A DNA stretch of 64,000 bases, taken from assembly GCF_002113885.1 (NCBI RefSeq), contig NW_018404943.1:1425236-1489235 (forward strand), written 5' to 3'. The notes under the pieces are model-generated. The model was not told the DNA's origin and searched no databases. It worked only from the letters and a program-made list of their open reading frames with translations. This DNA is from Mizuhopecten yessoensis (Eukaryota). This document shows positions 3,201 to 56,800 of the stretch, piece after piece (the first letter of the stretch is position 1; each line of letters opens with the position of its first letter). The translations under genes were made by a program, and so were the position numbers.

Positions 3201-5546
3201 TATATGACAATGATATAACCAAATGTTCTTTATATTAAAAGTGCATGTTTATTCATAAATGTTTCAAAGATTGCACAAGAACATACATTCAGATAAATCT
3301 TATTAGATATTACATTACCTTTGGACAATGTTTTGAACTATTTGTGGTGCTATTGTAGGAGGATCATATATTTACCCTTACACAATGTTTAAACCTAACG
3401 GCGCTAGTTCCTCTATCAACACCACAACAATCAATGGCGGGGCAGTTTGTATCCAGTTCTGGTACGCGATGACTGCATCTACCTCCAATCTGGAAATCCT
3501 TGTGGATACCAATGGTCAGGAAACGTCTGTATGGCAACAGACTGGTCGTCATGGAGATGATTGGAGGAAGGCGACAATGGCCGTTTCCAGTCAGGCTCCA
3601 TTTAAGGTATATATTTATTGCAATATAATATAATATTTACATACAAGTTTGCAAAATCGAATTTTTTCTCTTGATATGCATGCGTTCTTCGCTGTATCTG
3701 AGTTACTTGAACGCATATCAAGACTTGTCTCAGCTAGCATGCATATTGCATGAAGTGCGTTAATGACATTATAATATATGCATGCTTTGTGACGTTGTTA
3801 CATGTATGACATCACAGACCGTCTTTGCAACAATGTTATGTGGTACATCCTGTGTACGTGAATTAATTCATTGTAACTTAAGGATCCCGGTTCAACTCTA
3901 GGCAAAACATTGTAGTTAGTTTAACCTAAAAAAACTCCTCTAAGTTTGTTTCGGGTATAAATGTAGCGCAACTCGGTCAGGGTTCAACCGTTGATCGATA
4001 AGCTCAGTTGGTTACAACAACAGTTTGATAATCGTGGGGTCTAGGGTTCGAATCTTTGTCAGGCACCTTAGTATAATACATATAGAGCATTGCTGTTGAT
4101 GATTTTTTATTCAATTTTAATTATTTTTCCTCTCAAAACAGGTACAGTTATCTTTTCAGAAAAGTTAATATCAGCTATTGGATTATTTTGATATACTTGT
4201 CGTGTATATTATCTGAGAACTGATATAAAATTCACATCTTTTATTTATTTTTAAATTTGTTAATTATATCATGGCGCTCTTTGTTTTTCTTTTTGTCGTT
4301 TTACTTTACTTTCTATTTCCTTTTTTTGCAGATTCGGTTCAAATGTGTAAGAAAAAATCATGACACAAAACTAGGTTTAGACGACATAAAAATATGGAAA
4401 TTTCCATCGATTACAACGACTAAGCCAACCACTACTCCCACCACGACACCAACCACGGCATCTACCACTAAACCAACCACTACATCAGCAACTACACCTA
4501 CAACTACACTCGCAACTACACCAACCAAGAAACCAACTACTACACCATCTACAACACCAATTACTACACCCACGACTACACCAACTACTACACCCACCAC
4601 TACCCCAACCACTACACTAATCACGACACCAACAACTACACAAACAACTGCACTGACCAAGACACAAATCACTACACCAACCACGACACCGACCACTACG
4701 CAAACTTCAACACCGACCACTACGCCAACCATGACTGCAACAAGGATACCAACCACTTCACAAACCATTACCCCAAACTATACGTCAACTACTACAAGGA
4801 CAACACATACGACTTCAACAAAGATAACCACATCAGTGATATCAACAACAGCACAAACAACAACACCTACAAAAGTTTCAAATAAGATATCAACAACAAT
4901 AACATCATCACTTGCAGAAATAACACCCGATGAAACAACATCAGTGAACCACATCCATAAATTTGTCCAACACACAACAGCTAAGAAAACAAAGAAACCC
5001 TCAACGAAGCCAACGACCGAACAAGTGTCAGAAATCGTATCCAAAATAAAAAATAACATAGCATCTTCAACATCATCGGAACAATCGACAACGTCACATA
5101 AAACAACAGACCAATTGTTGGAAATATCAACAACATCGGAATTCAATACAACACAATTTATGAATACGGCGTCAATACAGAATTCGTCAATTTCTGTACC
5201 TACGTCTAGAATAAAATCATCTATTCCGACTGAAACATCGCCATATCGATCAACTACTTCCGGTCACAGAATACACCATATTACTCATGGTCCTGCGGTG
5301 ACCATGACTATTCCTGTTGGCAATATTGAGAACAAAGTCGCTCAAAATGACGGGTCGTTCACCAGCAGTCACAAAACTGGGATAATCGTTGGATCCGTTA
5401 TTGGGAGTTGTGCTGTGGTTCTGGCAGCCTTAATGGTCATAAAGAAAGCCCGGGCAGCGAAAATAAAATGTTATCAACTAGAGAAATCGTATACAAGTGA
5501 TGAATACATTCCTGGATATCTTAAAATGAAAGGAATGAAAAAGTAA
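203..5546 (+). CDS. Gene A1: membrane-tethered MAM-domain mucin-like protein (signal peptide-MAM-PTS tract-TM-cytoplasmic tail), ~583 aa
   Basis: Exons 203-251, 2239-2478, 3359-3606, 4332-5546 have GT-AG junctions and compatible phases (1,1,0). The N-terminus MGKHILGWRLFYLICLGFTITTFHSTGA looks like a signal peptide. MAM motifs: CDFDSGFC, W, G-x-Y, CIQFWYAM, W..TG..G..W, IRF, LGLDDIKI. PTTT repeats follow, then TM GIIVGSVIGSCAVVLAALMVI and basic KKARAAK. AATAAA at 5567-5572. Confidence 0.85.
3998..4068 (+). mobile_element. Degenerate tRNA-derived SINE head in intron 3 of A1 (counterpart at ~38455-38522 in A2)
   Basis: A-box-like AGCTCAGTTGGTT and B-box-like GGTTCGAATC at tRNA spacing, but no intact cloverleaf stems. 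Present in both A paralogs, so it predates the duplication. Confidence 0.5.
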
Positions 5547-5823: not shown

Positions 5824-6269
5824 AATAGATATTCAGCAAAATGGACAATCAGAACATTAAAATATAAGCTGATTTTCTGTTGTTTTGAAATTCAATGAAA
5901 CCTTTGACATGTCACTCTCGTATCAATAATATGTAAAAAGTGTTCGCAATTCCTATATACGGGAACCACTTCCTTGACAGTCATGTAGTTAGGTGATGAT
6001 ACGACATGGCTGTTATGTCAGTAGTTAATGATAAGTACGGTGTATTTGCGTACCGCGGGTGCCATATAGATGATGTGTGATGATAGTGCATCACTAGTAT
6101 TGACCATGCTAAATTGCTATTTCCTTGACAGCCATGTAGCTATATACCTGATTATAAACCATGGTTGTTATCACAATAATTATTTATAAGTATTAACCAG
6201 TATAATTTACACTAAACTTATTCATTGGAAGCTATGTAGACGATTTCTTTGTGATATAGAGCGGATTTA

Positions 6270-9479: not shown

Positions 9480-12400
9480 ATGAAGCTGGCTTGGACTTTA
9501 GTTTTGCTACGTAAGTACAATTTATGATACGTTATTATCCATGTTCACTTTCAGTAATAATAATAACTATTATTTTTTTATTTAAAATCCTAAAGAGAGC
9601 TAGAAAAGAATATAAATATGTACCAATACATACCATGTGTAACTTTTAATTTTATGCTTGGTCAGTATCTTACAGTTAGTATTACCAGTAATATGACCTA
9701 AAACACATATTCTTAATTTGTTATTTTGTTATAAATGAGGAATGATCGACTATTGCAGACTTTCTTGTCGTAGAAATTAAATTTAAAAAGTGTAAAACAT
9801 CATAATGTTGAATATTACACATACACTGTTATCACAAAAGCATAAACAACCAAGTATTTAGTTTGGATTTTTAATGTTTATATCTTTAAGGAAGTACAAA
9901 CAGTCACCCAGGTAACAACAAAAATAACACACACCAATCAAACAATAGTTAAAATGGAAGCTTAGTTACCAGATTCATATTTCGTGGTTGTTGTTAATGA
10001 TTACGCGCGTTAGCTGTCCCAAAAGGTTTTATGTCGTAAACAGTCAATAAACAACTCTCCATGTGAACCACTGTTTTAGTTTCCAAGTCAGCCAATACAC
10101 CAGCTAATCAATTTTCAACTGTAATTCAATTCGTTAAGATTCTCACATATCATAGTTTGCAAATAACAAACTTTCAAAATCTTGAAACGCAAAATATGCC
10201 ATTCTACGAATCAATTGATGTCTATAGATACTCTAACGTAACGCAATAAAATGTGTTACAAAACACCGACATATATTACATGTACTCGATCGATTAGTAT
10301 TGGCCGATTCTTCTATTGCTTACTCAATGATGTCATGACCACGTGCAGTGGCTAGATTTCCTGAAATTCAAAACCGTAACCACAAACGTAGGTTTTGAAG
10401 CCGATTTCCTGTGTTTGCTTAATTACGTGGTGTTTAAAGGGAGCTAACCCGTCTTGACATAACGTTTTTTACTAGGACTGGTGGATAATTCTTTACACTG
10501 TTTTGCTCTAAAGAATCTTGAAATTTTGTATATTCTATATTTCCTATCTAATACATATTTTCATGTAAACGATTTATTTTGACAAAAAGAACAATCATCG
10601 TGATGTAACCACAGTTATAGAATATATATGTTATTTTAAGGATTGAGAAACATTATGATATTTAGCTTCATGAAATGGGAGCATAGGAAATACAAGAAAA
10701 ACTTGGTTCAGTGTAAATGTACTAGGTATACATGTACATGTTTCAACTAATGAAATTTCATAAGAGATGTTGAACTTACAACATTGTTCAGTTAATATAC
10801 ACTTTATATATACTGTGATTAACACACTTATGAACGTGTTTGAACTTGAATAAGTCAGTTCTATTCGCTATGACAATCACAATTGTCAATCCTGATGCCT
10901 ATGACATTTCTTTATCAAACCAGCGCCCTTAACAAAGTGAACATCTGTGTACACGTGGTATCGGGGTTTTAAGCGAGCAATCTTTATATCTTTCATATCG
11001 CAAGAAACGTATTAAAAACACTCTCAAGGCCTAAAACTCACCGAAATCAAATACCAGCAGATATGTGCATCCTCAGATAATCTCTCGACCTAATGGTATC
11101 TCTTGTAAAGTCGCGATCTGTGTTCACACTTCCTTCTCTGGGAGGCTCGAAAAACTTTATCAGTACGAATTTAGTTTCACGGGATACTATGGAATGTAAA
11201 TTCACAAAAGGATATAGAAAAGCAATGAATTAAAATGTCTGGTTTACCCTCATTCATAAGTATAAAGTATAAACAAAATTGATATCTGCCACTTATTATT
11301 CGCTAGAAAAGATTTCAATTTAAACGCATTTGAATGTATATTTAATGTACAATGCATTTATAATACAATAAAACAAGTTGTTAAAAGTCTCTCTGTATAC
11401 ATGAAGTACTGCTGGGCGAGCCAATTCGAGCGACATCGTGAAAATGTTAAAATAATAAGTTAGAAGTGATATACTGTGATAACTAAGTGATACTTTGTGT
11501 GTTGACAATGGTGAATTGTCCATCGTGGTTTTGTGTGTTGACAATGTCTAGGGTGTAGTGTGTTAACATACTTATTTTTAGTTGCAAGTTGGTTGATAAT
11601 TTCAAAAGGGTACTTTGACTCAATCCCAATTACGGAAGTGACAAACTCTGAGCAAATTTTCGCTTAAGGTCATCGGAGTGTATTGATAAACGGACTTAGG
11701 AAGTACATCCCTTGTTGAAAATCCAATGTAGGGAGACAGTATCACAATTTCCGCATATTCTAATGTTTAATATCAAACGGATGAATATTGTATGTTTATT
11801 ATTGACAGAACAGTGTGTTCTCGCAATATTAAAGTATTTCAAAGCAATCCAGGCATTAATGCAGGTTTTTATTTATCAATGAGTCACATGTGTCCATTTT
11901 TCTGTACTTTAAGAAACCGGCTACCTATTTCACTACTGTGAAGTTTTTCAAGAACGATAACTCTAACATGCAATTACTATGTGTATGGGTTTATTATAAA
12001 ATGTAAATTTTTAATCGTTTATAGATAAAAAAAAATTAATCAGTTTCAGAATTTATCAAATTGATATACATTAATGCAATACTAATCTATGGCAGTTTTT
12101 TTTTTTTGACATTATTTTGCAGACAATTGTGTCTTTAATTTTTTTTTCAAAATCCACTCCTTTTTACATAAATTTCCATTTAAAATCCTGAAAATTCCGA
12201 CAACCTATATTTTTTTGTTGCAATTTTTTTCTTTACTTCAAAGCAATATAACTACAAAATTTGAAGAAATTCTACTGAGAAATGGTGACACAAACCTACA
12301 TAAATGTCTTACCTTAAAAAGAAAGTTAAATAACATTAGTAAGGATCTTTAAGGAAAGAAATGTTATTGTATCTGCTAGGTCTGAATAAAAGTACATTAA

Positions 12401-15400
12401 TTATACATAACACGACACTTGAATTTTAAAACTGGACAATAGAAACACGTTTTTTATTTCTCAAATGCAAATCATGTTTTTAATATTTCACAGTTTTTGT
12501 CCTTGAATGTTGATAATGTGAAATACAGTCAAACCTGCTTGAGCGGTCACCTGAAATGAGCAGCCACCTCCCTAATGTGGTCAGTCTGTGGTCCGTCCGA
12601 TAGAAAAAAACTATATAATGAACCTGAAATAAGCAGCCACCTGTCTAATGCGGCCAGCGGCCACAAAACTCTGGCCCGAGACGTTATCTCCACCTTCAGC
12701 AGTCATTTTGTCCAGAAATTGACATCAAGAAAATCCCAATATATTAACAAGAACACATCCCAATAGAGCAAAGCTAATTACAATGTGTAATTAAAAACCA
12801 TAGGTAAGGTTTGACACGTTGAATTGACAAGTTGTTTACACAGCGATTTTCAGCTTGCAAATTGGGACAGGTCCTACCGACCCATCAACATTGTTTTACA
12901 AACAAAACAATAAATCCCACTTTGTGTACTCAATCAGCTTGTGATTTTTTAAAACAAGTATGATCTTTTGTGGTATCTGTACATACTGTATCCAAAGCTA
13001 CTCAGGCCTAATATATTATGTGATCAAAAAACTTGCCGCTATATTGCATGCGAAAACAGATCTGCTTCCGGTCTGCCAGTCACTATTTCTATATCAACGA
13101 AGCAGACATCATGTCAAAAGGATAAATTTCACAGCGCAGACGCTGAATCAGATTTTTGTTTTGATTAATTCGTCGTGATTTATTTCTATAATATAATAAT
13201 TTGGTTTTTAATAGCTGTGCGAGATCAGGACATTAGTGTTAGCCTTTCCATAAGGCGCGTGGGTGCTGTGAATAAACCGTTACGCTAAGTTGAAAGCTCA
13301 AAGATTCTTGCAAAGTACTAGATCTACTGAGTGATTTATTTATAAATGATGAATTAAGTTAATTATTTGATCCACATAGATCAGAATACATAGCAATGCA
13401 GATTTTCATTAAAATCAGATATACATGTAGATTTCATTACTGGTGGTTGTCTGCTAGCGCAAAACGTATGTGGAACACGTGTGTAGCCAAACAAAAATAA
13501 ATTCATCATTTCAAGAAATTAATCACCAAAACGCCTTTGTATTTCATTGATTATGCAAATTTATATTCAGGTATGAATTCGTACCCCTGTTGATGAAGGG
13601 AGAAAAATTCAAAATAACATAGCCGCCTATATTTCCGGTGAAATGTCATTATAACCCGTGGATGTATGGAAACTTGGTTGTGATTTTCGGGTGAGCCTGG
13701 TTTTAGCAGCCACCTGTCTTAAGCGGCAAATTTCTGCCGGTCCCTTGGGTGGCCTCTTAATACAGGTGTAATGTGTCCGTGCTTGGTGACACTTCACACT
13801 TTATTTTGGTTCTTTTTAATTTTTTGAATGATAATTTAATTTAATTTCTTTTATGTTTTGCAGATATCTTAACATCAGCGTGGCTATTTAGTGATGCAAG
13901 ATCAGTCGCCTCAGTTCCACCAACTAATGTCCAAGTTCTGTCTAACAGTAGTTGTTCCGATATCAATGTGAAATTACTTAGCCAGAGCTGTGACTTCAAC
14001 AGTGGTTACTGCAGCTTCAGTCACCCGACGGATTACCATGACTTACGGTGGAGGATAACATCTTCAACATATTACGCAGAAGTACATTCTCTTCATGGTA
14101 ATTTAACGTGTTATCATAAAAAAGATTTGTCTCAAAATTGGTTATTTATACAAGTTTGATTGCAATAGTATTTGTTGAGCTTATTGATGTTGAGCGATCT
14201 ATCTTTCAGAGAATTAATAACGATTTCTTTAAATTCTTATCATCAAAAATGTTTTATCTCTGAATGCAATAGAAATAACAAACATTACTTTTTCAAGCTG
14301 ATATCTCTGTTAATATTTTAAGACCTATCTGATTGTTTTTAAATTATGAAACTTATTCAGAAAAGAACTTTATATTCTTGTCCTTCTGCAGCTATTTATT
14401 GCTTCCATGGAAATATATTTACTCTCATTATTCACACTTATACGATCGACTTAATGTGACGGAGTACTATGTAATCGCCGCATAATGTATTACGATATCT
14501 CTTGTTTGACGTAGGTGTCTTTTAAATAGGTACATATTGCTTATAATCATATCACTGTAGCATAATTTTTGTATAATTACAGGAGGGTCATATATCTACC
14601 CATACATGTTGGGTAGACATGACGGCGCTAGTTCCTCTATCAACACCACAACAATCAATAGCGGGACTGTGTGTATCCAGTTCTGGTACGCCATGTCAGC
14701 ATCTACCTCCAATCTGGAAGTCCTGCTGGATACCAACGGTCAGGACACATCGCTATGGAAACTGACTGGTCGTTATGGAGATGGTTGGAGGAAGGCGACA
14801 TTGGCTGTGTTCAGTCAAAGTCCATTTAAGGTAATGATATTACATAGTAGCCAACTGCCTCACCTCCATGTGTTATAGATATCATACATATGACACGATG
14901 AAACAACATATTCATCATCATCTGCAGTAGGAACAGAAAAATGATGATATAAACCAAAAATATGGTGGCATATTTCTGCCATCCACTTGCGACTTACGAG
15001 TTACGTATGTCCACATAATTATTGAAAGATGTCAACATAATCTGAGAAGATGTCGACATATCTTTTAAATTATGTCGACAGATTATCACATTTGCCGAGA
15101 TAATTATCTCGTAAGTGGGTAACTCGGCTTTTTATCGTGTTAATGCTCGGGTGTGACATCGACTTGCCACTTACGACTTGCCAATTACGACTTATTTATG
15201 TCGACATCCTATTAGATTATTGCCGACTTACCAAAACGAGCCTTGTGCACGAGGACCGCGAAGGGGGGCTGATGGTGACTGAACAGTGGTGACTATACTG
15301 GTGAGTAACTTGGTAAAATCAATTTAAATATGGGAAATCAAAGATATGAATATTACAGTAGGTTACTATGATGTACAGAGTTTATCAATCAAAGAGGGAT

Positions 15401-18400
15401 TTTACATAAATAAGTCGTAAGTGGCAAGTCGTAAGTGGCAAGTCGTAAGTCGATGTCACACCCGAGCATTAACACGATAAAAAGCCGAGGTACCCACTTA
15501 CGAGATAATTATCTCGGCAAAATTATCTCGGCAAATGTGATAATCTGTCGACATAATTTAAAAATTATGTCGACATCTTCTTAGATTATGTCGACATCTT
15601 TCAATGATTATGTCGACATACGTAACTCGTAATTCGCAAGTGGATGGCAGAAATATGCCACCATACAAAAAGCTTCTGCTTAAATAAGATCATTAACTAT
15701 TTCTAGCGGAACGTTGTAATTAAAACAAAATGCGCTTTACAATATTATAAAAGTATTGAAATATCGGAATATGTTGGTTATGAACAGAGCATACTGTTAC
15801 AAGATAATACATATTTATATATATTATCTTATATTTCCATTTCCTTTGTACAGTCCTCATGTAAATCTACATTAATGTATCAACCAATGATTTTCCTATA
15901 ATCGAACAACAGCAAGACCCACTTAATGTTTCCAATCGGAACCTGTTCAGGTCTTACTGTCAAACTGTTTAAGGAATCGATCTCAAAATCATGACTTGGC
16001 GTGACGTACAATTCAAATTTATTCAGATTCATACAAATGTAGAAAACTCTTCGCCATATGCTTGACACTTCAATATTTTTATATCCATTATTGTGATAAT
16101 TCATGCTGATGAAAAAATAATACCGCAAAATACATACCAAAAAAGTAGAATTTTAACATTTTCTCACTTGCACTGTGTCGCCGTTCACGGACGAGATAGT
16201 AATGAATTCGAACCTGACACGTATTAAGACTCAGAAACAGTCCCTGCTGTTTTCTTCAAAGCAATGTTTAATACTCTTTTGTAATTTCGAACGAGTTCCC
16301 CTCAAAAACTGTAGATAAACTTGTTGTTATTGAAACATGCATGTCTTGTTTATCTAGTATTCCCTTTTTGTCATATTCTGGTATCTACGGAGCCTGGAAA
16401 GGGACATACAAACATTAACTGAGATTATGTTTAGTAATATGTAATCTCGGGTTATTTATCTTTTTTCCCCCACCATGTCCCATCCTAGGCTTCGTAGTAT
16501 GTAGATGTATAGACAGTAGAAAAATGAAAACATACATTTATGTTCATGTAACCAACTATATTATTACTATTTTGCAGATTCGATTCAAATCTGTAAGAAT
16601 CAACGTTCGCACAAAACTGGGATTAGATGATGTAAAGATTTGGAAATTTCCTTTCAATACGACAATATCAGCTAAAACGACGACACGAACGACAACACCG
16701 TCGCCATGGACAACACGAACAACAACAACATCGCCATGGACAACACAAACGGCATCATCAACGATAACACAAACGAGTACACCTTTGACAACAACAACAC
16801 TTTCATGGGCATATTCAACGACAACTATACCAACAACACAGAAAACACCAATGAAAACATTGAAGACAAAACATAGAATTTCACAGATCAAACCATGGGA
16901 AATGCTAACAAAAACATCAACAACAAAGCAAACGATTATTCCTGCAACAAAACCTTTTGCAACAGCCATGTCACCATGGCCAGCCTCTACGAAAATGCTA
17001 ACGACCAATCCAAGATATCCGTGGCTATCATCAACGAAACCACCAACACCAGCAAGGACAATTTCAACGGCGAAACCGTTGACAACTCAAACGATGATTA
17101 CAACAACTACACGAACCTATCAATGGACTACAGCAACACCACCATGGAGAACATCAACAACACCACCATGGGGAACATCAACGAAAACACCATGGAGAAC
17201 ATCAAGGACAACACCATGGAGAACAACGACACCACCACCATGGAGAACATCAAGGACAACACCATGGAGAACAACGACACCACCACCATGGAGAACATCA
17301 AGGACAACACCATGGAGAACAACGACACCACCACCATGGAGAACATCAAGGACAACACCATGGAGAATAGCAACAACACAACCATGGAGAACATCAACGA
17401 AAACACCATGGAGAACATCAAGGACAACACCATGGAGAATATCAACAACACAACCATGGAGAACATCAACGAAAACACCATGGAGAACATCAAGGACAAC
17501 ACCATGGAGAACAACGACACCACCACCATGGAGAACATCAAGGACAACACCATGGAGAACAACGACACCACCACCATGGAGAACATCAAGGACAACACCA
17601 TGGAGAACAACGACACCACCACCATGGAGAACATCAAGGACAACACCATGGAGAACAACGACACCACCACCATGGAGAACATCAAGGACAACACCATGGA
17701 GAATAGCAACAACACAACCATGGAGAACATCAACGAAAACACCATGGAGAACATCAAGGACAACACCATGGAGAACAACGACACCACCACCATGGAGAAC
17801 ATCAAGGACAACACCATGGAGAATAGCAACAACACAACCATGGAGAACATCAACGAAAACACCATGGAGAACATCAAGGACAACACCATGGAGAACAACG
17901 ACACCACCACCATGGAGAACATCAAGGACAACACCATGGAGAACAACGACACCACCACCATGGAGAACATCAAGGACAACACCATGGAGAATATCAACAA
18001 CACAACCATGGAGAACATGAAAGAAAACCCCATGGAGAATATCAACAACACCACCATGGAGAACATCAACACCACCCCCATGGAGAACATCAACAACACC
18101 ACCATGGAGAACGCCAACAACACCACCATGGAGAACATCAACAACACAACCATGGGGAACATCAACGAAAACACCATGGAGAACATCAAGGACAACACCA
18201 TGGAGAACAACGACACCACCACCATGGAGAACATCAAGGACAACACCATGGAGAACAACGACACCACCACCATGGAGAACATCAAGGACAACACCATGGA
18301 GAACAACGACACCACCACCATGGAGAACATCAAGGACAACACCATGGAGAATAGCAACAACACAACCATGGAGAACATCAACGAAAACACCATGGAGAAC

Positions 18401-21400
18401 ATCAACAACACCACCATGGGGAACATCAACGAAAACACCATGGAGAACATCAAGGACAACACCATGGAGAATATCAACAACACAACCATGGAGAACATCA
18501 ACGAAAACACCATGGAGAATATCAACAACACCACCATGGAGAACATCAACACCACCACAATGGAGAACATCAACAACACCACCATGGAGAACGTCAACAA
18601 CACCACCGTGGAGAACATTAACAACACCATCATTGAGAATATCAACAACACCACCATGGAGAACGTCAACAACACCACCATGGAGAACATTAACAACACC
18701 ATCATTGAGAATATCAACAACACCACCATGGAGAACATCAACACCACCACCATGGGGAACATCAACGAAAACACCATGGAGAATATCAACAAGACCACAA
18801 TGGGGAACATCAACGAAAACACCATGGAGAATATCAACAAGACCACCGTGGGGAACATCAACGAAAACACCATGGAGAACATCAACGAAAACACCATGGA
18901 GAACATCAACGAAAACACCATGGAGAACATCAACGAAAACACCATGGAGAATATCAACAAGACCACCAGGGGGAACATCAACGAAAACACCATGGAGAAT
19001 ATCAACAAGACCGCCATGGGGAACATCAACGAAAACACCATGGAGAAGATCAACACCACCACCATGGAGAACATCAACGAAAACACCATGGAGAATATCA
19101 ACAAGACCACCAGGGGGAACATCAACGAAAACACCATGGAGAACATCAACGAAAACACCATGGAGAATATCAACAAGACCACCAGGGGGAACATCAACGA
19201 AAACACCATGGAGAACATCAACACCACCACCATGGAGAACATCAACACCCCCACCATGGAGAACATCAACAACACCATCATGGGGAACATCCAACGAAAA
19301 CACCATGGAGAACATCAACAACACCACCATGGAGAACATCAACGACAACACCATGGAGAACATCAACAACACCACCATGGAGAACATCAACAACCCCACC
19401 ATGGGGAACATCAACGAAAACACCATGGAGAAGATCAACACCACCACCATGGAGAACATCAACGAAAACACCATGGAGAACATCAACGAAAACACCATGG
19501 AGAACATCAACGAAAACACCATGGAGAACATCAACAGCACCCCCATGGAGAACGTCAACAACACCACCATGGAGAACATTAACAACACCACCATTGAGAA
19601 TATCAACAACACCACCATGGAGAACATCAACGAAAACACCATGGAGAATATCAACAAGACCACAATGGGGAACATCAACGAAAACACCATGGAGAATACC
19701 AACAAGACCACCATGGAGAACATCAACGAAAACACCATGGAGAATATCAACAAAACCACCATGGAGAACGTCAACAACACCACCATGGAGAACATCAACA
19801 ACACCATCATGGGGAACATCAACGAAAACACCATGGAGAATATCAACAGAACCACCATGGAGAACGTCAACAACACCACCATGGAGAACATCAACAACAC
19901 CATCATGGAGAATATCAACAACACCACCATGGAGAACATCAACGAAAACACCATGGAGAACATCAACACCACCACCATGGAGAACATCAACACCACCACC
20001 ATGGAGATCATCAACACCACCATCATGGAGAACATCATCAAAACCATCATGGAGAATATCAACAACACCACCATGGGGAACATCAACGAAAACCCCATGG
20101 AGAACATCAACAACACCATCAACCATGGAGAACATCAACAACACGATCATGGAGAATATCAACAACCCCCCCATGGAGAACATCAACACCACCCCCATGG
20201 AGAACATCAACACCACCCCCATGGAGAACATCAACACCACCATCATGGAGAACATCAACAACACCATCAACCATGGAGAACATCAACACCACCCCCATGG
20301 AGAACATCAACAACACGATCATGGAGAATATCAACAACCCCCCCATGGAGAACATCAACAACACGATCATGGAGAATATCAACAACCCCCCCATGGAGAA
20401 CATCAACACCACCCCCATGGAGATCATCAACACCACCATCATGGGGAACATCAACGAAAACTCCATGGAGAACATCAACACCACCCCCATGGAGATCATC
20501 AACACCACCATCATGGAGAACATCAACAAAACCATCATGGAGAATATCAACACCTCCACCATGGAGAACATCAACGAAAACGCCATGGAGAACATCAACA
20601 CCACCATCATGGAGAATATCATCAAAACCATCATGGAGAATTTCAACAACACCACCCTGGGGAACATCAACGAAAACACAATGGAGAACATCAACGAAAA
20701 CGCCATGGAGAACATCAACACCACCCCCATGGAGAACATCAACACCACAACCATGGAGACCGTCAACACCACCACCATGGAGAAAATCAACAACACCATC
20801 ATGGAGAACATCAACAACACAACCATCATTGAGAATATCAACAACACCACCATGGAGACCATCAACGAAAACACCATGGAGAACATGAACACCACCACCA
20901 TGGAGAACGTCAACACAACCCCCATGGAGCACATCAACACCACCACCATGGAGAGCATCAACACCACCATCATGGAGAACGTCAACACCACCACCATGGA
21001 GATCGTAAACACCACCACCATGGAGAACGTCAACACAACCCCCATGGAGCACATCAACACCACCACCATGGGGAACACCAACAACAACACCATGGAGAAC
21101 AACGACACCACCACCATGGAGAACATCAAGGACAACACCATGGAGAACAACGACACCACCACCATGGGGAACATCAACGAAAACACCATGGAGAATATCA
21201 ACAACACCACCATGGAGAACATCAACACCACCACCATGGAGAACGTCAACACCACCACCATGGAGCACATCAACACCACCACCATGGGGAACACCAACAA
21301 CAACACCATGGAGAACAACGACACCACCACCATGGAGAACATCAACGAAAACACCATGGAGAACATCAACACCACCACCATGGAGAACGTCAACACCACC

Positions 21401-22277
21401 ACCATGGAGAACATCAACACCACCACCATGGAGAACCACAACACCACCACCATGGAGAACATCAACACCACCACCATGGAGAACATCAACAACTCCACCA
21501 TGGAAAACATTAACGACAACACCAACCAATCCACAGGCAACACCACCAACACGTGCAACAAAAACAGAAAAAACTCCTTGGAACATATCAAAGGCAATGA
21601 AAACAACGACAATACCAATACATATACAGGCAACAACAACGACAACACCAATGACAACAACAGCACTAACAGGGAAAACGACGCTACCAATAACAACACG
21701 AATTGACCAATGGCCATCATCAACAACACCACCGTGGAGAGCATCAACGAAACCAACTACAACACCAAGCAATGCAAGGGCAACACCAAAGATAACACCA
21801 ACAACGAACCAAACTATTATATTCACGACAAAACAAACGTCGAAAACAACAATGCCATGGACAACTTCAACATCATCACCAGCTACAACACACACGGCTA
21901 GACCAAAGACAACATTTAGGGATCCATGGACAACATCAACATCACCAACTACAACATGGTCGAAAACACCCATGTTAACACAACCGACAACATTTAAAAT
22001 AACATCACCGACACCCTCATGGACAACACAAACGACTAATCAACGGAGTACACCAACATCAACAACACCATCGACAGCATCAATGACAACTCCGATGTCA
22101 AAACACACAACATCAACAACACCGAAGCCACCGACGACATCTGCCTCTACGTTTGGTCTTAACCCGCAACCTTCTAACTCTGGGTTAGCGGCAACGAACC
22201 AGCAAAACGGAGCATCCGCCTCAAAAGCTCATAATACTGATATTATGTTTTTTTATTGGCGTTCTTCGTGGTCGTAA
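9480..22277 (+). CDS. Gene B1: secreted MAM-domain mucin-like protein with Trp/Arg-rich (PPWRTSTT)n tract; as assembled it stops at TGA 18018-18020 (~651 aa), while the ancestral frame ends at 22277
   Basis: Exons 9480-9510, 13864-14097, 14583-14830, 16578-(18020/22277). Signal peptide MKLAWTLVLLHILTSAWLFSDA; same MAM motifs and exon-3 size (248 nt) as the A genes. In-frame stops at 18018, 20886 and 21006; three +1 frameshifts at ~19291, ~20121 and ~20269. C-terminus HNTDIMFFYWRSSWS* matches B2. Confidence 0.8.
11668..12313. mobile_element. Non-autonomous DNA transposon with TTAA target duplication (Kolobok-like)
   Basis: TTAA|GGT...ACC|TTAA. The paralogous B2 intron has a single TTAA at 50089-50092 (empty site). 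Confidence 0.75.
12526..13768. mobile_element. Non-autonomous Tc1/mariner (pogo/Tigger-like) element with TA target duplication
   Basis: TA|CAGTCAAACCTG... left end and partly deleted right TIR ...CAGGTG|TA, with internal repeated GCAGCCACCTG motifs. Empty site GAAA-TA-ATGTGTCC at 50299-50300 in B2. Confidence 0.8.
14961..15665. mobile_element. Foldback-type MITE with ~230-bp TIRs and 6-bp TSD (IS3EU-like termini TAY..RTA)
   Basis: TATGGTGGCATATTTCTGCCATCCACTTGCG... and ...CGCAAGTGGATGGCAGAAATATGCCACCATA are inverted copies. CAAAAA is duplicated at 14955-14960 and 15666-15671. Absent from B2 intron 3 (~54375). Confidence 0.85.
16386..16496. mobile_element. Short internally deleted MITE remnant
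   Basis: Inverted ends TACGGAGCCTGGAAAGGGACAT / ATGTCCCATCCTAGGCTTCGTA. A degenerate copy sits at the same place in B2 intron 3 (~55150-55245). Confidence 0.55.
17130..21505 (+). repeat. Coding minisatellite, 24-bp unit (ACACCACCATGGAGAACATCAACA), roughly 180 copies
   Basis: CCATGGAGAAC recurs every 24 nt, with 48-bp dimeric higher-order units in 17200-18350. Confidence 0.95.
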
Positions 22278-22686
22278 ACAATCTATAAAGAGAGTAAGGA
22301 TGCCTCTTACAGTTTGTTTATAACAGAAAATCATGGATATATCATGAATATAAAATCATAAAATTGAAAAAAGTATACCAAAATACAATTTTACACTGCA
22401 ACATACATGTAATAAATATCAAAATTTGATCTGAATTTGATAGTCAGATTTCAAAGGCAATTAAAAATCATCAACACTGACAGATTTAACGTATCGCCAC
22501 CAGTGTGGATGGTATCATGTTTCAGACCGAGAATTGAGTTATTTGCCAGGGGCAGATATAACCGTGCACGTGTGATTTACATTGTATAATAGAGACTCAA
22601 CTTAAATGATTTGCTATTAATTGAATGATAGTTTTTTTTAACGATTTCGGACAATAAAATGTAAACAGCGAGAGATTAGCAACAAT

Positions 22687-22920
22687 GGGTGGTCGGGTGG
22701 TGCAGTGGATAGCGCACTTGCCTTTCACCAAGGCGGCCGGGGTTCGATTCCCCGATCGGACGTGAAAAGGTTGGCGTCACCTGCCCGACCACGAGGGTTT
22801 TCTCCGGGTACTCCGGTTTCGTCTCACACTAAGACCCCCAACGCGCTAACATCCGGGCAACAAGAGTGATTAATATAAGTTGAAATAAATTGTTTCATAA
22901 TTGTTGTAAAATAAATAAAT
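22687..22920 (+). mobile_element. tRNA-derived SINE (V-SINE type), near full length
   Basis: A box TGGTGCAGTGG, B box GGTTCGATTCC, central GGGTTTTCTCCGGGTACTCCGGTTTC (V-domain-like) and an (AAAT)n tail. Confidence 0.85.
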
Positions 22921-27618: not shown

Positions 27619-28946
27619 TTGCTTTATATTATCGTTGAGTGTTAGTGATGCAAGATCAGTGACCTCCCCAAGAGCGACTAATGTCCACGTTTTGTCTAAC
27701 AGCAGTTGTTCTGATATCAATGTAACACTACAGAGCTGTGACTTTGATATTGTAGCTTCAGTCACCCTACGGTGTACAGTGACTTCGGTGGAAGATTACA
27801 AGTGAACTGCGAGACTCAACCGTCAATTCTCTTCACGATGGTAATTAAACGTGCTATCTTAAACAAACCCTTTGTTTCAATTTAATTTCAATAACCTTTT
27901 AAGAATATTTATTGTCATAAAAGGATCGGGGACTAAATGGTCAAAGTAAACACAACATAGATGTTACGTGATCTCAATATAGCATAAAGCAGAATAAGAT
28001 TTACTTAGAATTGTCAATGGACCTGCACAATTATTGGATATCAAGTGAGCTATACAGGCACATTTTGCCTCTTGCTAAAGTTTTAAATTGTTGTTTTGTT
28101 CACGTTATAATGTCCGTACTTTCAACATGTATATAAATTGTGTTTTTTGGCATAAACTATTTACATTTGTACTTACTTAATAAACTGCAGATCGAATGTT
28201 TTTTAAATCTGCTTCATAATGACATTTCATTATGTATTGGTCTGAGTTCAATGGGAAGACTTTTTTATATTAAACATGACTTTGATGAGATTTTAGGCTA
28301 ATTTATTTTTTAAGTTTGTTGTCAAATCATCATGACTATATGGTTTGTGTGCAAATATTTCATTTTTTTCAATAGAAACGATTTATCTTTCTTACCCAAA
28401 CAAAAAAGGTCTACGAGATGTACTGTGATACAGTGTTATCGCCTTATCATGTACAAATGAATCTCGCTAAACATTGTAAGACGTTTGTGTGTCTTTCAGA
28501 GTTTCAAGTTGATCGCTATAGCCTCTGACCTCAACATCAGCGGTCGGACGGGATGTGGTATTAGTATACATGTGGCTTACACTTCTACTCAAAATTGATA
28601 AAGTCAGGACCATAAATATAGAATCGGAACGAAATTTCATTTGTTTTTTTTAATTTACGAGTCATAAGTGACCCAACAAGGTCTAGAACGGATGTAGGTG
28701 TCCAACATTTGAAAGTTTCTTCATACAGGAATTACTTCATACATAATTTACTGTCCAGCGTTATTTTGTTGAATTTACAGGAGGATTCTATATCTACCCA
28801 TACACGACTGGTAGATATGACAGTGGTAGTACATTTCAACACCTCAACAATCAATGGCGGGGCGGTGTGTATACAGCTCTTTTACATCATGACAGCATCT
28901 ACCTCCAATGTGGAAGTCCTGGGGGATATCAATGGTCAGGACACGT
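27619..28946 (+). pseudogene. Decayed B-type MAM-mucin paralog (exon 2 and partial exon 3 only)
   Basis: Exon-2 homolog 27619-27840 (SDARSVTSPRATNVHVLSNSSCSDINVTLQSCDFD, then a frameshifting deletion). Exon-3 homolog 28781-28946 (GFYIYPYT..., frameshift, TINGGAVCIQLFYIMTASTSNVEV, truncated). Intron-1 homology at ~26480-26780. No exon 4 found. Confidence 0.85.
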
Positions 28947-30229
28947 ACATATTTTTGCAGTAGCCTCATTTTAAGCGCTTTAGGAACAAGACTACATGAA
29001 TAACACGTCAAGTCCTTGTATATTGTTCTCTTTCGCATGATGTTTAGGTGCGCCAATTCATCAAGGCGCAGCTATGTTATAATTCGATAATGCGCTTAAA
29101 TTTGCTAGAATAAGTACGTTTACTGTATAAAGTTGTCAACTGTTTTACCAAACCAAACTTCAAATGGGTGACTTCTTCCCAATCTGTAGGGCTAACAGGT
29201 ACTTTAGAACAAACCATTTGTAACAAATCTGATCATAAACTATTTCAAGCATACTGTTTCAATTTAAACTATTCACATTTATTGTCGTAGACATGAAGAA
29301 TGAGCATTATATGTGTAATTATAAAATAGAACTGTGCACCAAAGTGTCATCAAAAAATGTAATTGGAACACAAAATCAATAAAGCTGGGGCAAAATAAGA
29401 ACACGGAGACCCTGAAAATGATAATTAAACAAGGTTCTTCGGAAAAGTAAGCGTCTTCTGCTTCATCGATAACCCCTGCCACGTAAACTTAGGTCACATC
29501 AGAGTTAAGTGACATTCTCATCGGGAAAACCAGGATAGTGACAACAACACAACAAGACACACTCATGAACACAATTTAAAAAGCGAATATATCTATCGAA
29601 CAACAAATTGGAATGCTTTCCCATGAGATTATAAGACTTGCCCATAAAATCTTAGCATCATCAACATGTATCTTTGGAAACCATGTGTTAGTTTAATGGT
29701 ACTATGTTTAAGGACGTACAAACAGTCAACCAATCAAAGTAGTTACTGAAATTACACACTGCAATCATGCAACAATTCAATCAAAACTTAGTTACCAGAT
29801 TCCTATTTCCAGCTTGTTGGTAATTATAATGAAGGTCAGCTATCCCGAAAAAAATATCTTGTCGTAAACATACAATACCCAATGTGAACCAATATTTCTT
29901 TCGTCACAAAATCACATGGCAATATTTCATTGGTCAATAAATCAAGAAACCAGCTAAAGATTTCCTAAAATTCAAACATAACCACAAAAGCAGGAAAAAC
30001 ATAGGTTTGCAATGGTTGTCGTGAATCTTGCATGTATCTTCAAAACTCAGTTCATATCTGATCAGTCTGATTGCTTGATACGTGTTTAAAGGGAGCTAAG
30101 TCTTCTTAACATACATTTTTCAATTTTTTCTTTGAAGAAACTTGAATTTTGGTATATTTATATACTTCGTTTTGACAAGAAAATAAAATTGTCGTAATGT
30201 TTATAAATATACTATATACTTTATTTCTT

Positions 30230-40000: not shown

Positions 40001-40534
40001 ACAACTACACAAACAACTACACCAATAACTACACCTACAACTACACCAACCACTACACCAGCTACCACACCTACAACAACACCAACCACCACACCTACAA
40101 CTACAGCTACAACTACACAAACAACTACACCAATAACTACACCTACAACTACATCAACCAATACACCAACCACGACACCAACAACTACTTCAACCACTAC
40201 ACAAACAACGAAACCGACAGCGACAACGACCACGACTCCGACCACTACGGCAACCAGTACGACAACCGCTTCGCTAACCAGTAGACCAACTACTACAGGG
40301 ACGAAACGTACGACTATACAAAAGCTAACATCATCAGAGATATCAACAACAGCACAAACATCAAACTGGATAATCGTTGGATCCAGCATTGGGGGATGTG
40401 CTGTAGTTCTGGCAGCCTTAATGGTCATAATGAAAGTCAAGACGGCGAAAAGAAAAAAAAATCAACTAAGGAAATTGTATATCGGCGATGAGTTTATTTC
40501 TGAACATCTTAATATGAAAAGAATGAAAACGTAA
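31060..40534 (+). CDS. Gene A2: membrane-tethered MAM-domain mucin-like protein, ~770 aa
   Basis: Exons 31060-31108, 35119-35358, 35962-36209, 38759-40534; exons 1-3 have the same sizes as in A1 (49/240/248). Signal peptide MGTFILGWRLFYLTCLGFTISTF, MAM motifs, uninterrupted (PTTT)n tract, TM WIIVGSSIGGCAVVLAALMVIM and a basic tail. Confidence 0.87.
32052..34362. other. ~2.3-kb insertion in A2 intron 1 relative to A1 (unclassified, probably mobile DNA)
   Basis: A1 reads CTCATAAG-CTATGTTTAAACAA contiguously (~1619-1640), but in A2 the two halves lie at ~32044 and ~34366. No clear TIR or coding signature. Confidence 0.5.
37171..38334. mobile_element. Non-autonomous DNA transposon with ~37-bp TIRs in a TTAA site (Kolobok-like)
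   Basis: TTAA|AGCTGACAGTACAAGTTAAAATGGCTTTCAATCAAGA ... TCTTGATTGAAAGCTTTTTAACTTGCACTGTCAGCT|TTTA. Empty site TTAA-GGATCC at 3878-3887 in A1. Confidence 0.82.
38845..40200 (+). repeat. Coding 12-bp repeat (ACACCTACAACT; PTTT) with 108-bp higher-order units
   Basis: Visible directly; higher-order units start at 39781, 39889, 39997 and 40105. Confidence 0.9.
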
Positions 40535-40948: not shown

Positions 40949-43548
40949 ACAAACTGTATATCAAATCACAAACTGTAGAACAAATCACAAACTGTAGAAC
41001 AAATTACAAGCTGTAGAACAAATTACAATCTGTATAACAAATCACAAACTGTAGAACAACTTACAAGCTGTAGAACAAATTACAAACTGTATATCAAATC
41101 ACAAACTGTAGAACAAATCCCAAACTGTAGAACAAATCACAAACTGTAGAACAAATTACAAGCTGTAGAACAAATTACAATCTGTATAACAAATCACAAA
41201 CTGTAGAACAAATTACAAGCTGTAGAACAAATTACAATCTGTATAACAAATCACAAACTGTAGAACAAATTACAAGCTGTAGAACAAATTACAATCTGTA
41301 TAACAAATCACAAACTGTAGAACAAATTACAAACTGTATAAAAGATTACAAACTGTATAACAAATTACAAACTGTAGAACAAATCCCAAACTGTAGAACA
41401 AATCACAAACTGTAGCAAACTGTATAACAAATCACAAACTGTAGAACAAATTACAAGCTGTAGAACAAATTACAATCTGTATAACAAATCACAAACTGTA
41501 GAACAAATTACAAGCTGTAGAACAAATTACAAACTGTATATCAAATCACAAACTGTAGAACAAATCCCAAACTGTAGAACAAATCACAAACTGTAGAACA
41601 AATCACAAACTATAGAACAAATTACAAACTGTAGAACAAATCACAAACTGTAGAACAAATCACAAACTGTAGAACAAATCACAGACTGTATAACAAATCA
41701 CAAACTGTATAAAAGATTCCAAACTGTATAACAAATTACAAACTGTAGAACAAGTCACAAACTGTAGAACAAATCACAAACTGTAGAACAAGTTACAAAC
41801 TGTAGAACAAATCACAAACTGTAGAACAAATTACAAGCTGTAGAACAAATTACAAACTGTATATCAAATCACAAACTGTAGAACAAAACACAAACTGTAG
41901 AACAAATCACAAACTGTAGAACAAATTACAAGCTGTAGAACAAATTACAATCTGTATAACAAATCACAAACTGTAGAACAAATTACAAACTGAATAACAA
42001 ATCACAAACTGTATAAAAGATTACAAACTGTATATCAAATTACAAACTGTAGAACAAATCACAAACTGTAGAACAAGTTACAAACTGTAGAACAAATCAC
42101 AAACTGTAGAACAAATCACAAAATGTATAACAAATCACAAACTGTATAAAAGATTACAAACTGTATTACAAATTACAAACTGTAGAACAAATCACAACTC
42201 GTAGAACAAATTACAAACTGTAGAACAAATCACAAACTGTATAAAAGATTACAAACTGTATAACAAATTACAAACTGTAGAACAAATCCCAAACTGTAGA
42301 ACAAATCACAAACTGTAGAACAAATTACAAGCTGTAGAACAAATTACAAACTGTATATCAAATCACAAACTGTAGAACAAATCCCAAACTGTAGAACAAA
42401 TCACAAACTGTAGAACAACTTACAAGCTGTAGAACAAATTACAAACTGTATAACAAATTACAAACTGTAGCAAACTGTAGAACAAATTACAAACTGTATA
42501 ACAAATTACAAACTGTAGAACAAATCACAACTTGTAGAACAAATCACAAACTGTAGAACAAATTACAAACTGTATAACAAATCACAAACTGTAGAACAAA
42601 TCACAAACTGTAGAACAAATTACAAACTGTATAACAAATCACAAACTGTAGAACAAATCACAAACTGTATAACAAATCACAAACTGTATAAAAGATTACA
42701 AACTGTATAACAAATTACAAACTGTAGAACAAATCACAAACTGTAGAACAAATTACAAACTGTATAACAAATCACAAACTGTAGAACAAATCACAAACTG
42801 TATAACAAATCACAAACTGTATGAAAGATTACAAACTGTATAACAAATTACAAACTGTATAACAAATCACAAACTGTAGAACAAATTACAAACTGTATAA
42901 CAAATCACAAACTGTATAAAAGATTACAAACTGTATAACAAATTACAAACTGTAGAACAAATCACAAACTGTAGAACAAATTACAAACTGTAGAACAAAT
43001 CACAAACTGTATAACAAATTACAAACTGTAGAACAAATCACAAACTGTACAACAAATCACAAACTGTATAACAAATCACAAACTGTATAACAAATCACAA
43101 ACTGTAGAACAAATTACAAACTGTAGAACAAATCACAAACTGTAGAACAAATTACAAACAGTAAAACAAATCACAAACTGTATAAAAAATTACAAACTGT
43201 ATAACAAATCACAAACTGTATAACAAATCACAAACTGTAGAACAAATTACAAACTGTAGAACAAATCACAAACTGTAGAACAAATTACAAACAGTAAAAC
43301 AAATCACAAACTGTATAAAAAATTACAAACTGTATAACAAATCACAAACTGTATAACAAATCACAAACTGTATAAAAAATTACAAACTGTAGAACAAATC
43401 ACAAACTGTACAACAAATCACAAACTGTATAACAAATCACAAACTGTAGAACAAATCACAAACTGTAAAACAAATCACAAACTGTATAAAAAATTACAAA
43501 CTGTATAACAAATCACAAACTGTAGAACAAATCACAAACTGTAGAACA
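40949..43548. repeat. 2.6-kb minisatellite, 19-bp unit (AAACTGTAGAACAAATCAC), ~135 copies
   Basis: AAACTG recurs at 19-bp spacing (e.g. 41103, 41122, 41141). Non-coding; absent at the paralogous site downstream of A1 (~8170). Confidence 0.95.
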
Positions 43549-53800: not shown

Positions 53801-56800
53801 ACAAATTGTACCAAATCGCACAGTTGTGCTGGGAGAACGATGGTTAAATCGCCCAGTTGTGCGCACCATGTGTGGACGATGTGCGGACGGTGTGTGAACG
53901 ATGTACGCACGGTGTGCGCACGGTAGTTTTGGTGCGTTGTGCGGTCACACAACTGTATTGCATATAAACATATAACTGTAGCACACTATTTGTATAATTA
54001 CAGGAGGGTCCTATATTTACCCATACACTGTCGGTAAACATGACGGCGCTAGTTCCTCTATCAACACCACAACAATCAATGGCGGGGCTGTGTGTATCCA
54101 GTTCTGGTACGCCATGACACAATCTGCCTCCAATCTGGAAGTCTTGGTGGTTAACAACGGTCAGGAAATGTCGCTATGGAAACAGACTGGTCGTTATGGA
54201 AATGATTGGAGGAAGGCGACATTGGCTGTTTCCAGTCATGTTCCATTTAAGGTAATGATATTATATAGCAGCCAACTGCCTCACCTTCATGTGTTATAGA
54301 TATCATACATATGACACGATGGAACAACGTCTTTATCATCATCTGCAGTGGGAACAGAAAATGGTACTATAAACCAAACCACTTTTAACAAATCAGATCA
54401 TCAAATATTTCTATATCTTTGCAACAAAAAAAATCGCGCTTTACAATGTAATTTACATTTCCTTTGTACAGTCCACAGGTAGACCTAAATTAATGTATCA
54501 ACCAATGATTTTTCTTATAATCGAACAACAGCAGGAATCACTGAAAGTTTCGAATCGGAAACTGTTCGGGTCTTACCGTCAAACTGTTTGAGGAATCGAT
54601 CTCAATATCATGGCCTGACGTGACGTAAAATTTAAATTTACACGGCAAAACGTAAATTAAAAATCCGTGTCAGATTAAGACAGGTGTATTGGCTTCCTTA
54701 TTATTGTTACCCTAGAAACCGTCAGATTTTTACAAATGTAGAAAACTCTTCGTCAAATGAGGATATATCGAAGTATCTGTTATTTTACCAGAGGGACATA
54801 CATACTTGACACTTGCCGAGTCAATATCTTAATTCCATTATCTTAAGAATGCATACTGATAAAAAAAGCAATCACAAATTACATATAAAAAAGTAGGATT
54901 TTGAAATATCTCCACTTGCACTGTGTCGCCGCTCATGGAGAAGAAAGTAATACACTCGAACCTGACACGTATTAAGACTCAGACTCAGTACCAGTAACTA
55001 ATGTATTCTTCTTATAACTCAAAGCAATTTTTAATACGCTTTTGTAATTTCGAACGAGTTTGCCCCGTAGACCGCAGATACGCCTGTTGTTATTGAAACA
55101 TGCATGTTTTATTTATGTAGTATTTCCTTTTGTGTTGCATTCTGGTATCAAAGGACATTACATCGTTAACTGATATTATGGTTTAATAATACATGATCAC
55201 CGTTTATTTCTTTTTCTTTTCACATTGTCCAATTCCAAGCTCCGTAGTATGTAGATGTTTACACAGTAGAAAAAGATAATACATACAGTTATGTACATGT
55301 AACCATGTATATTATGTATATTTTTCAGATTCGATTCAAATCTGTCAGAATCAACTTTGACTCAAAACTTGGCTTAGATGATGTAAAGATTTGGAAATTT
55401 CCAAACACTACGACACTATCAATGACGTCTGAAACGACGACACAAACGACCAAAACGTTGCCATTGACAACACCAATATCATCAACAACAACACAAACAA
55501 GTAAACCTTCGACAACAACGCCAACGACAACAACACCCACTACAACACCACCAACGACAACAACACCAACGACAACCACACCAACGCCAACAACACCAAC
55601 GACAACAACAACAACGACAACAACAACAACGACAACAACACCAACGAAAACCACACCAACGAATACAACACCAACGACGACAACACCACCGACAACCACA
55701 CCAACATCGCCACCACCAACGACGACAACACCAACGTCGACAACACCAACGCCAACCACACCAACGACGACAACACTAACGACAACCACACCAACGTCAA
55801 CAACACCAACGACAACCACACAAACGACAACAACACCAACGACAACGACACCAACGACAACAACGCCAACGACAACCACACCAACGACCACAACCCCAAC
55901 GACAACCACACCAACCACAACAACACCAACGACAACCACACCACCGACAACCACACCAACGACAACAACTCCAACGACAACCACACCAACGAACACAACT
56001 CCAACGACAACCACAGCAACGACAACAACACCAACGACACCGACAACAACGACAACAACGACAACGAAAACAACGACAACGTTAACAACACCACCGACAA
56101 CAACACCAACGACAACCAAACCAACGACAACAACACCAACGAAAACAACACTAACACCACACCAACGACGACAACACCATCGACTACAACACCAACGACA
56201 ACCACACCCACGACGACAACACCAACGACAACCACACAAACGACAACAACACCAACGACAACAAAACCAACGATAACCACACCAACGACAACCACACCGA
56301 CGACAACAACACCAACGACAACCGCACCAACTACAACCACACCAACGACAACAACTCCAACGACTACAACACCAAGGACAACCACACCAACGACAACAAC
56401 CCCAACGACAACCACCCCAACGACAACAACACCAACGATAACCACACCAACGACAACCACACAAACGACAACAACACCAACGACAACACCCCCAACGACA
56501 ACCACTCCAACGACAACCACTCCAACGACAACCACTCCAACGACAACCACTCCAACGACAACCACTCCAACGACAACCACACCAACGAAAACCACACCAA
56601 CGACGTCAACACCAACGACGACCACACCAACGACAACCACACCGACGACAACAACACCAACGACAACCGCACCAACTACAACCACACCAACGACGACAAC
56701 TCCAACGACAACCACACCAACGACCACAACACCAACGAAAACCACACCAACGTCGACCACACCAACGACGACAACACCCTCGACGACAACACCAACGACA

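Follow-up and report, generated by a model that had tools for sequence, protein, structure and literature searches.

Likely loss of the membrane anchor by an old frameshifting deletion in a tandem cluster of MAM-domain mucin-like genes of the scallop Mizuhopecten yessoensis

Have the two B-type genes of this scallop cluster, whose predicted proteins end in a few weakly hydrophobic residues, lost the membrane anchor of their A-type neighbors, and does the anchor-like sequence readable out of frame at their ends still serve the protein? The window, that is, the whole 64-kb stretch of DNA that was analysed (on G000:C1616), contains part of a tandem cluster of MAM-mucin genes. In each gene a signal exon and two MAM exons are followed by one large last exon, which completes the MAM domain and also encodes a Thr/Pro-rich stalk and the C-terminus. 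Two genes, A-2 and A-1 (L004/L005), lie upstream of the window and are followed in order by A1, B1, a degraded copy, A2, B2 and C; no third B copy is present in the assembly. PF00629 scored above the Pfam cut-off in the third exons of all four genes in the window (39-46 bits vs 26.4), the predicted fold compared with MAM domains gave a TM of 0.75, and the start of the last exon is homologous across all six genes. The degraded copy (27626-28960) carries frameshifts and stops, and no last exon was found for it.

The database model of B1 (P0001, Mizuhopecten yessoensis) is partial, ends inside the repeat and is labelled mucin-2-like. This MUC2 label was assigned automatically; neither a von Willebrand D nor a CysD domain was seen, and B1 shares a signal peptide, a MAM domain and a Thr/Pro-rich stalk with MAM-domain (PF00629) mucin-like surface proteins. 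P0001 has two short close relatives, from Ylistrum and Argopecten; among the matches, close relatives were confined to three scallop species, every one of them a partial model. A literature search covering few subscription journals returned no description of a scallop MAM-domain mucin cluster, and PMC12357810 was rejected as a source on it, the available part of that paper dealing with a meprin-like protein.

The A copies provide the reference state. All four have an open last exon and end in a spacer or the stalk, a 20-residue transmembrane segment and a basic cytoplasmic tail, as in the two that lie inside the window:

5343 to 5546, plus strand: A1 spacer, intact transmembrane segment (5382-5441) and cytoplasmic tail, in an open last exon; best 19-residue hydropathy mean 2.6
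40370 to 40534, plus strand: A2 intact transmembrane segment and cytoplasmic tail, without spacer

The transmembrane segment is also intact in C, a distant MAM paralogue (L013:6453-L014:3800; G000:C1616, about 1495700-1503035) with a mucin last exon open over 2154 codons and a Tyr-containing cytoplasmic tail. Some variation exists among the A copies themselves. The transmembrane segment of A-1 (L005) is one codon shorter, and a 1-nt insertion lengthens its tail by a few residues. Unlike the other A copies, A2 has no juxtamembrane spacer (40331-40370), the stalk joining the transmembrane segment directly; this would be a second independent deletion adjoining the anchor. A 19-bp satellite (137.8 copies, 40949-43548) lies immediately downstream of A2.

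The B copies have the same plan up to the stalk but a different end. The features of B1 are as follows:

9480 to 9510, plus strand: exon 1, signal peptide start; matches the N-terminus of P0001 and is followed by a GT donor
13864 to 14100, plus strand: exon 2, first MAM part (end approximate); tblastn of P0001, AG acceptor
14576 to 14833, plus strand: exon 3, core of the MAM domain with approximate bounds; PF00629 at 40.1 bits, above the Pfam cut-off
16578 to 22277, plus strand: last exon with the MAM end, a Thr/Pro/Trp/Arg-rich stalk and the tail; AG acceptor
17134 to 21524, plus strand: 24-bp tandem repeat, 182.5 copies
22203 to 22247, plus strand: spacer, putative homologue of the juxtamembrane segment in A-type genes (A1 5343-5387); profile p=0.002, bins test
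22248 to 22254, plus strand: T7 run at the putative deletion junction, of one length in all contigs aligned
22248 to 22277, plus strand: present-frame C-terminus FFYWRSSWS and stop (22275-22277), weakly hydrophobic; Kyte-Doolittle best 9-residue mean 0.41
22253 to 22288, plus strand: shifted frame, likely a relic of the A-type transmembrane segment's second half, ending in TAA; -25 nt register
22289 to 22371, plus strand: 3' UTR stretch that may hold a decayed remnant of the cytoplasmic tail of A; within the A1-B1 local alignment, p=0.004

Those of B2 are:

55329 to 58953, plus strand: last exon with a 15-bp Thr/Pro repeat; register shifted twice by 1 nt, near 56150 and near 58175
58879 to 58953, plus strand: spacer, then the T4 run (58927-58930) and, in the present frame, the C-terminus MFYLHSSWS with its stop (58951-58953); best 9-residue hydropathy mean 1.19
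58929 to 59126, plus strand: shifted frame, likely transmembrane relic followed by 57 further codons

The peptides on which the original prediction was built are all there: three spacers, the ends FYWRSSWS and FYLHSSWS before a stop, the T7 run of B1 and the hydrophobic shifted-frame peptides. Whether the A and B ends are homologous was examined in several ways. The ungapped alignment of the A1 spacer with those of B1 and B2, which had been proposed, is significant against shuffled controls when three A and two B spacers are pooled (p=0.002), but not for the single pairs (A1-B1 p=0.13, A1-B2 p=0.62). When 3276 six-frame bins are ranked by a profile of the B spacers, the spacers of A-2, A-1 and A1 fall in the top 7, 6 and 22, respectively. 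In the DNA comparison the best two ungapped A-B diagonals are adjacent, one at offset 0 in the spacer and one at -25 over the transmembrane segment's end, which places A1 5422-5446 over B1 22257-22281 and B2 58933-58957. The -25 offset has p=0.008 when unanchored and, anchored on the spacer, p=0.0003 when columns were shuffled, 0.0013 when present-frame codons were and 0.0007 when shifted-frame codons were; in this register the shifted frames of both B genes match VLAALMVIK codon for codon. In a two-block scan, in which the blocks were picked post hoc, B1 and B2 each independently chose 25 among 65 allowed offsets and were outranked by A loci alone among 327,600 positions. Of 19,338 comparable background blocks, 358 (1.9%) contain a 9-codon stretch as hydrophobic as the relic.

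Other comparisons gave a weaker signal. Pairwise A-B DNA alignments reached p<0.05 in two of eight cases, the other six not being significant, and the transmembrane-remnant peptide alone was equalled or beaten by 224-612 of 3276 bins. Run blind over 164 kb, a DNA profile built from B alone left the A tails within the background: of 1092 bins, that of A1 came in the top 2% and those of the remaining A copies at 11-35%. The remnant of the A cytoplasmic tail suspected behind B1 was not seen after the B2 tail (local alignment p=0.16). The nucleotides TTATTGG, taken at first as transmembrane sequence retained by the B genes, do match, but at an offset of -5 and in the other shifted frame; they would be homologous only given a double deletion of 5 and 20 nt, where a further loss of 20 nt between two TGG after the first five gives the net -25. 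The MAFFT register of the B tails against A was judged wrong, and the diagonal tests were used instead. An origin by a one-base deletion from a C-like transmembrane segment found no DNA support (p=0.78). Searches for the tail elsewhere were weak blanks: a B-tail alignment found orthologous tails in 0 of 836 candidates, the A1 region before and across the transmembrane segment found orthologues in 0 of 222, a representative search using P0002 had, among its 150 listed matches, just P0001 and P0005 as close relatives, with the tail in neither, and an Atlas search with the B1 tail returned no usable match. On the strength of the alignments we regard the homology of the A and B tails as probable, not overwhelming, a judgement in which the position at the end of the same exon also counts; the two blocks, collinear and with an anchored p<=0.0013, make it likely, as first proposed, that the B tail is a frameshifted relic of an A-type transmembrane segment.

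The shift is old, shared by both genes and real, not an assembly error, again in line with the original prediction. The length of the B1 T7 run is uniform in assembled contigs, one long contig per run spanning it with 0 gaps in four of four runs from four studies. These contigs represent three haplotypes (window/X1, X7=X13 and X15) and show no substitution across 22142-22301, a comparison that rests on per-record counts. For the T4 run of B2, which was aligned in three of the four runs, two records bridge the run and two more overlap it, without gaps. Contigs drop rare variants, and five runs were taken as RNA by guess. Over the last 39 codons of the present frame, B1 and B2 differ by 13 synonymous and 19 non-synonymous changes (pS 0.53, pN 0.21), and third positions hold 17 of these 32 differences (p=0.016). 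Past the T run the present frame has three synonymous and two non-synonymous changes, against one and eight over 12 codons in the shifted frame. This pattern suggests that the present frame is constrained. In the MAM DNA tree B1 and B2 are grouped (support 85/94); a protein tree with outgroups gave no resolved branching, so that polarity is taken from counts and one distant paralogue.

Contigs aligned around B2 hint at further copies. Between 58780 and 59650 several divergent B2-like contigs occur in X14 and X15, with up to 13 differences in 99 nt and carrying a 63-nt and a 12-nt deletion; their sequences point to additional B-type alleles or paralogues that the assembly lacks. In this divergent copy TGG is changed to TAG at 58962-58964, the same codon as the TAA of B1, and at 58944 its change is synonymous in the present frame. 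For the X14 record, five of its nine differences from B2 are among those listed.

Taken together, we consider it likely that an old frameshifting deletion of net 25 nt in the transmembrane coding sequence made a secreted subclass, of which the hydrophobic shifted frame is a fossil. B1 and B2 would be sister copies whose ancestor lost the 25 nt within the anchor-coding stretch, either as a single deletion or as 5 plus 20 nt between two TGG microhomologies, the transmembrane form being the presumed ancestral state. The remainder of the anchor would thereby have been thrown out of frame, the protein ending nine residues later, and the B products are predicted to be secreted. The shifted-frame peptide would be hydrophobic because it derives from the second half of the old transmembrane segment, and would likely be an untranslated fossil and no working GPI signal. 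As there would be no anchor left to reach, the stalk likely tolerates stops and frameshifts, which would yield secreted MAM heads whose stalks differ in length. The proposal that the secreted class arose by frameshift loss of the anchor thus appears likely, with the transmembrane segment intact in the siblings and the B tail shifted.

The state of the stalk bears on a second reading, compatible with this one, in which B1 and B2 of this haplotype are truncated or decaying and their tails are never translated. As assembled, the last exon is broken in both B copies, in contrast to the A copies: the repeat of B1 has in-frame stops at 18018, 20886 and 21006 and three register shifts (+1, +4, +4), besides the two shifts of B2, and the first stop falls at codon 481 of 1900 in B1 and 316 of 1208 in B2. 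In this assembly the B frames are therefore cut before the tail, and the constraint on the unreached tail would be historical or held by other alleles. Decay is also favored by the partial P0001 model ending in the repeat and by the B1 haplotype differences upstream of the tail, of which about 3 in 15 are synonymous. Long repeats, however, are prone to assembly error, the signal and MAM exons are intact, and none of the 15 listed haplotype differences creates an in-frame stop. We regard decay in this haplotype as possible, if doubtful; the broken repeats reflect either misassembly or a stalk freed, by the loss of the anchor, from staying open. If the stalk is truly broken, a tail untranslated in this haplotype leaves the prediction of secretion unchanged.

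Further observations concern the B1 repeat. One X7 contig extends 1846 nt upstream of 21700 (19854-21700), and in the assembly 746 of the 1817 31-mers of that interval are repeated; the repeat of the X7 allele may differ or be collapsed. The repeat is also open for 700-900 codons, at 16877-19582 and 19598-21706, in a second, Asn-rich and sequon-rich register of MENINNTT type. This register was rejected as the true repeat frame of B1, a synonymous bias being absent in every register.

The claim that the -1 frame looks like a GPI signal is partly borne out. A small-residue site (SAS in B1, SSG in B2) stands nine residues ahead of the hydrophobic stretch; in B1 this stretch is 12 residues long, with a best 9-residue hydropathy mean of 3.38, and the site lies 23 residues before the shifted-frame stop. 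This resembles the layout given in the available portion of PMC4136848, an omega site with a hydrophobic region from about omega+9. The stretch is C-terminal in B1 and in the X14/X15 copy, but the frame of the window's B2 runs on for 57 residues, to 59124, without a nearby stop. In the window and in every spanning contig, the shifted-frame signal is out of frame with the ectodomain. A GPI-like look is expected from any half of a transmembrane segment with a chance stop.

A shifted-frame stop shared by B1 and a B2-like copy is, nevertheless, not predicted by a neutral relic, and invites a history in three steps: an in-frame loss of 24 nt and a new stop made a GPI signal, and a later 1-nt loss turned the anchored protein into a secreted one, leaving the shifted frame as a fossil GPI signal. 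This would account for the spacing of the small-residue site, which follows the layout described in the accessible part of PMC4136848, for the common position of the stop codon in B1 (TAA) and in the divergent X14/X15 copy (TAG), and for the ungapped identity of B1 and B2 running just past that stop. It requires three events instead of one or two. In the transmembrane frame, codon positions 1/2/3 carry 5/1/3 of the A-to-B changes and pS is close to pN, the TTATTGG match favors 5+20 without an in-frame stage, and small residues stand at the site in A copies too. At the codon of the shared stop, A-1 and the window's B2 have TGG, a single transition from TAG, and two transitions in a neutral UTR suffice for the sharing. 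A GPI-anchored intermediate thus seems unlikely.

Less probable still is a case like that of MICA*008, in which the tail of the present frame would act as a GPI signal of a non-standard kind and B proteins with an intact stalk would be anchored at the surface. Such signals exist, with a precedent in what is available of PMC10316631; the tail length, the SSWS end and the stop position have been kept between B1 and B2 at a pS of about 0.5, and the small-residue site lies nine residues ahead of an IM/ILM stretch. The present-frame tails are, however, barely hydrophobic (means 0.41 and 1.19), with an Arg or His inside, and in this assembly the tail is not reached.

We also weighed whether the B tail is unrelated to the A transmembrane segment, the likeness being one of chance between AT-rich stretches that encode hydrophobic residues. 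The negative blind scan agrees with this, as does the A1 3' UTR near 5834-5887, which scores equally high against the B profile, and the B1 shifted peptide fits the transmembrane segment of C as well in protein alignment (score 22 vs 15). Against this, the two collinear blocks lie in the same exon and at the same position with an anchored p<=0.0013, and C is without DNA similarity to B (p=0.78), so that coincidence appears very improbable. The stretch of the A1 3' UTR (5834-5887) resembles the B spacer at background level.

Least credible is a minor GPI-anchored isoform of B1 made by polymerase or ribosome slippage at the T7 run, or anchored alleles, since, even though the shifted frame has a good GPI layout and low-level slippage would escape contigs that drop rare variants, the run is not conserved (T7 in B1, T4 in B2), no length variant was found in contigs of either gene, including three B1 haplotypes, no stimulatory fold was predicted, the region is rich in A/T runs of at least 7 (0.9 per kb) and, in this assembly, stops lie upstream. 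Fold predictions after the run gave z values from -0.6 to -1.6 in B1 and from -0.2 to +1.0 in B2 (mononucleotide shuffles, pseudoknots left out), and the predicted folds differ between the two genes. The U-UUU-UUA-type heptamer at the B1 run is presumably in the wrong phase for the present frame, which counts against slippage. A single B1 mRNA switching between a secreted and a GPI-anchored mucin by a one-base slip, with the old transmembrane segment recycled as GPI signal and its stop kept in two lineages, is accordingly hard to credit, and the anchored isoform first proposed found no support. For a ribosomal frameshift switching secreted and GPI-anchored isoforms, only a flavivirus protein case surfaced in the literature, in the portions available.

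The flanks of the B genes offered no shared alternative anchor exon downstream: hydrophobic 17-mers follow both B1 and B2, but none is common to both. Contig ends near AATAAA (X15 at 22662, X14 at 59646) were set aside, as each comes from a single study and X9 ends elsewhere. In the 3' flank of B1, at 22687-22919, there is a high-copy tRNA-derived SINE-like element with very high contig depth (Rfam tRNA 26.4 bits, below cut-off), and broken reverse-transcriptase (RVT_1) fragments from a retroelement occur at 61243-62113.

Returning to the anchor deletion, which we prefer, related cases are found in mammals. In the accounts available from PMC2832619 and PMC5856374, tandem duplicates of CEACAM transmembrane surface proteins have changed their anchorage repeatedly and independently by small deletions or stops in the transmembrane coding sequence, and primate CEACAMs gained GPI anchors from half a transmembrane segment and a stop. 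As far as these sources go, GPI-anchored CEACAM5-8 and the secreted PSG-like paralogues resemble B1 and B2 in that the anchor of duplicates was altered by a lesion in the transmembrane segment, but the residual segment of CEACAMs is in frame and serves as a GPI signal, while that of the B genes is out of frame. CEACAMs also have Ig domains and a separate transmembrane exon, whereas the scallop genes have one MAM domain and a single exon for stalk and transmembrane segment. In MICA*008, a frameshift inside the transmembrane stretch truncates the protein, and the new frame receives a GPI anchor (PMC10316631, from the part available). The position of the frameshift is alike, but MICA*008 is an allele and the B type a fixed paralogue class, and its new frame was found to carry a GPI anchor where that of the B genes is barely hydrophobic.

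In the scallop cluster, paralogues with an intact transmembrane segment exist (four A copies and C), and the lesion, of net -25 nt and weak in blind scans, lies within the transmembrane coding sequence. By comparison with CEACAM/PSG and MICA*008, the loss of the anchor would be a known kind of event, and its instance in this family appears to be new and undescribed. The finding would carry far more weight only if the hidden frame proved to yield an anchored product. As it stands, the cluster would provide an invertebrate example of a tandem family split into membrane-bound and soluble members by a small lesion of the anchor, with the old anchor still readable out of frame in the B copies, and the annotation of an undescribed group of scallop MAM-mucin genes is corrected.
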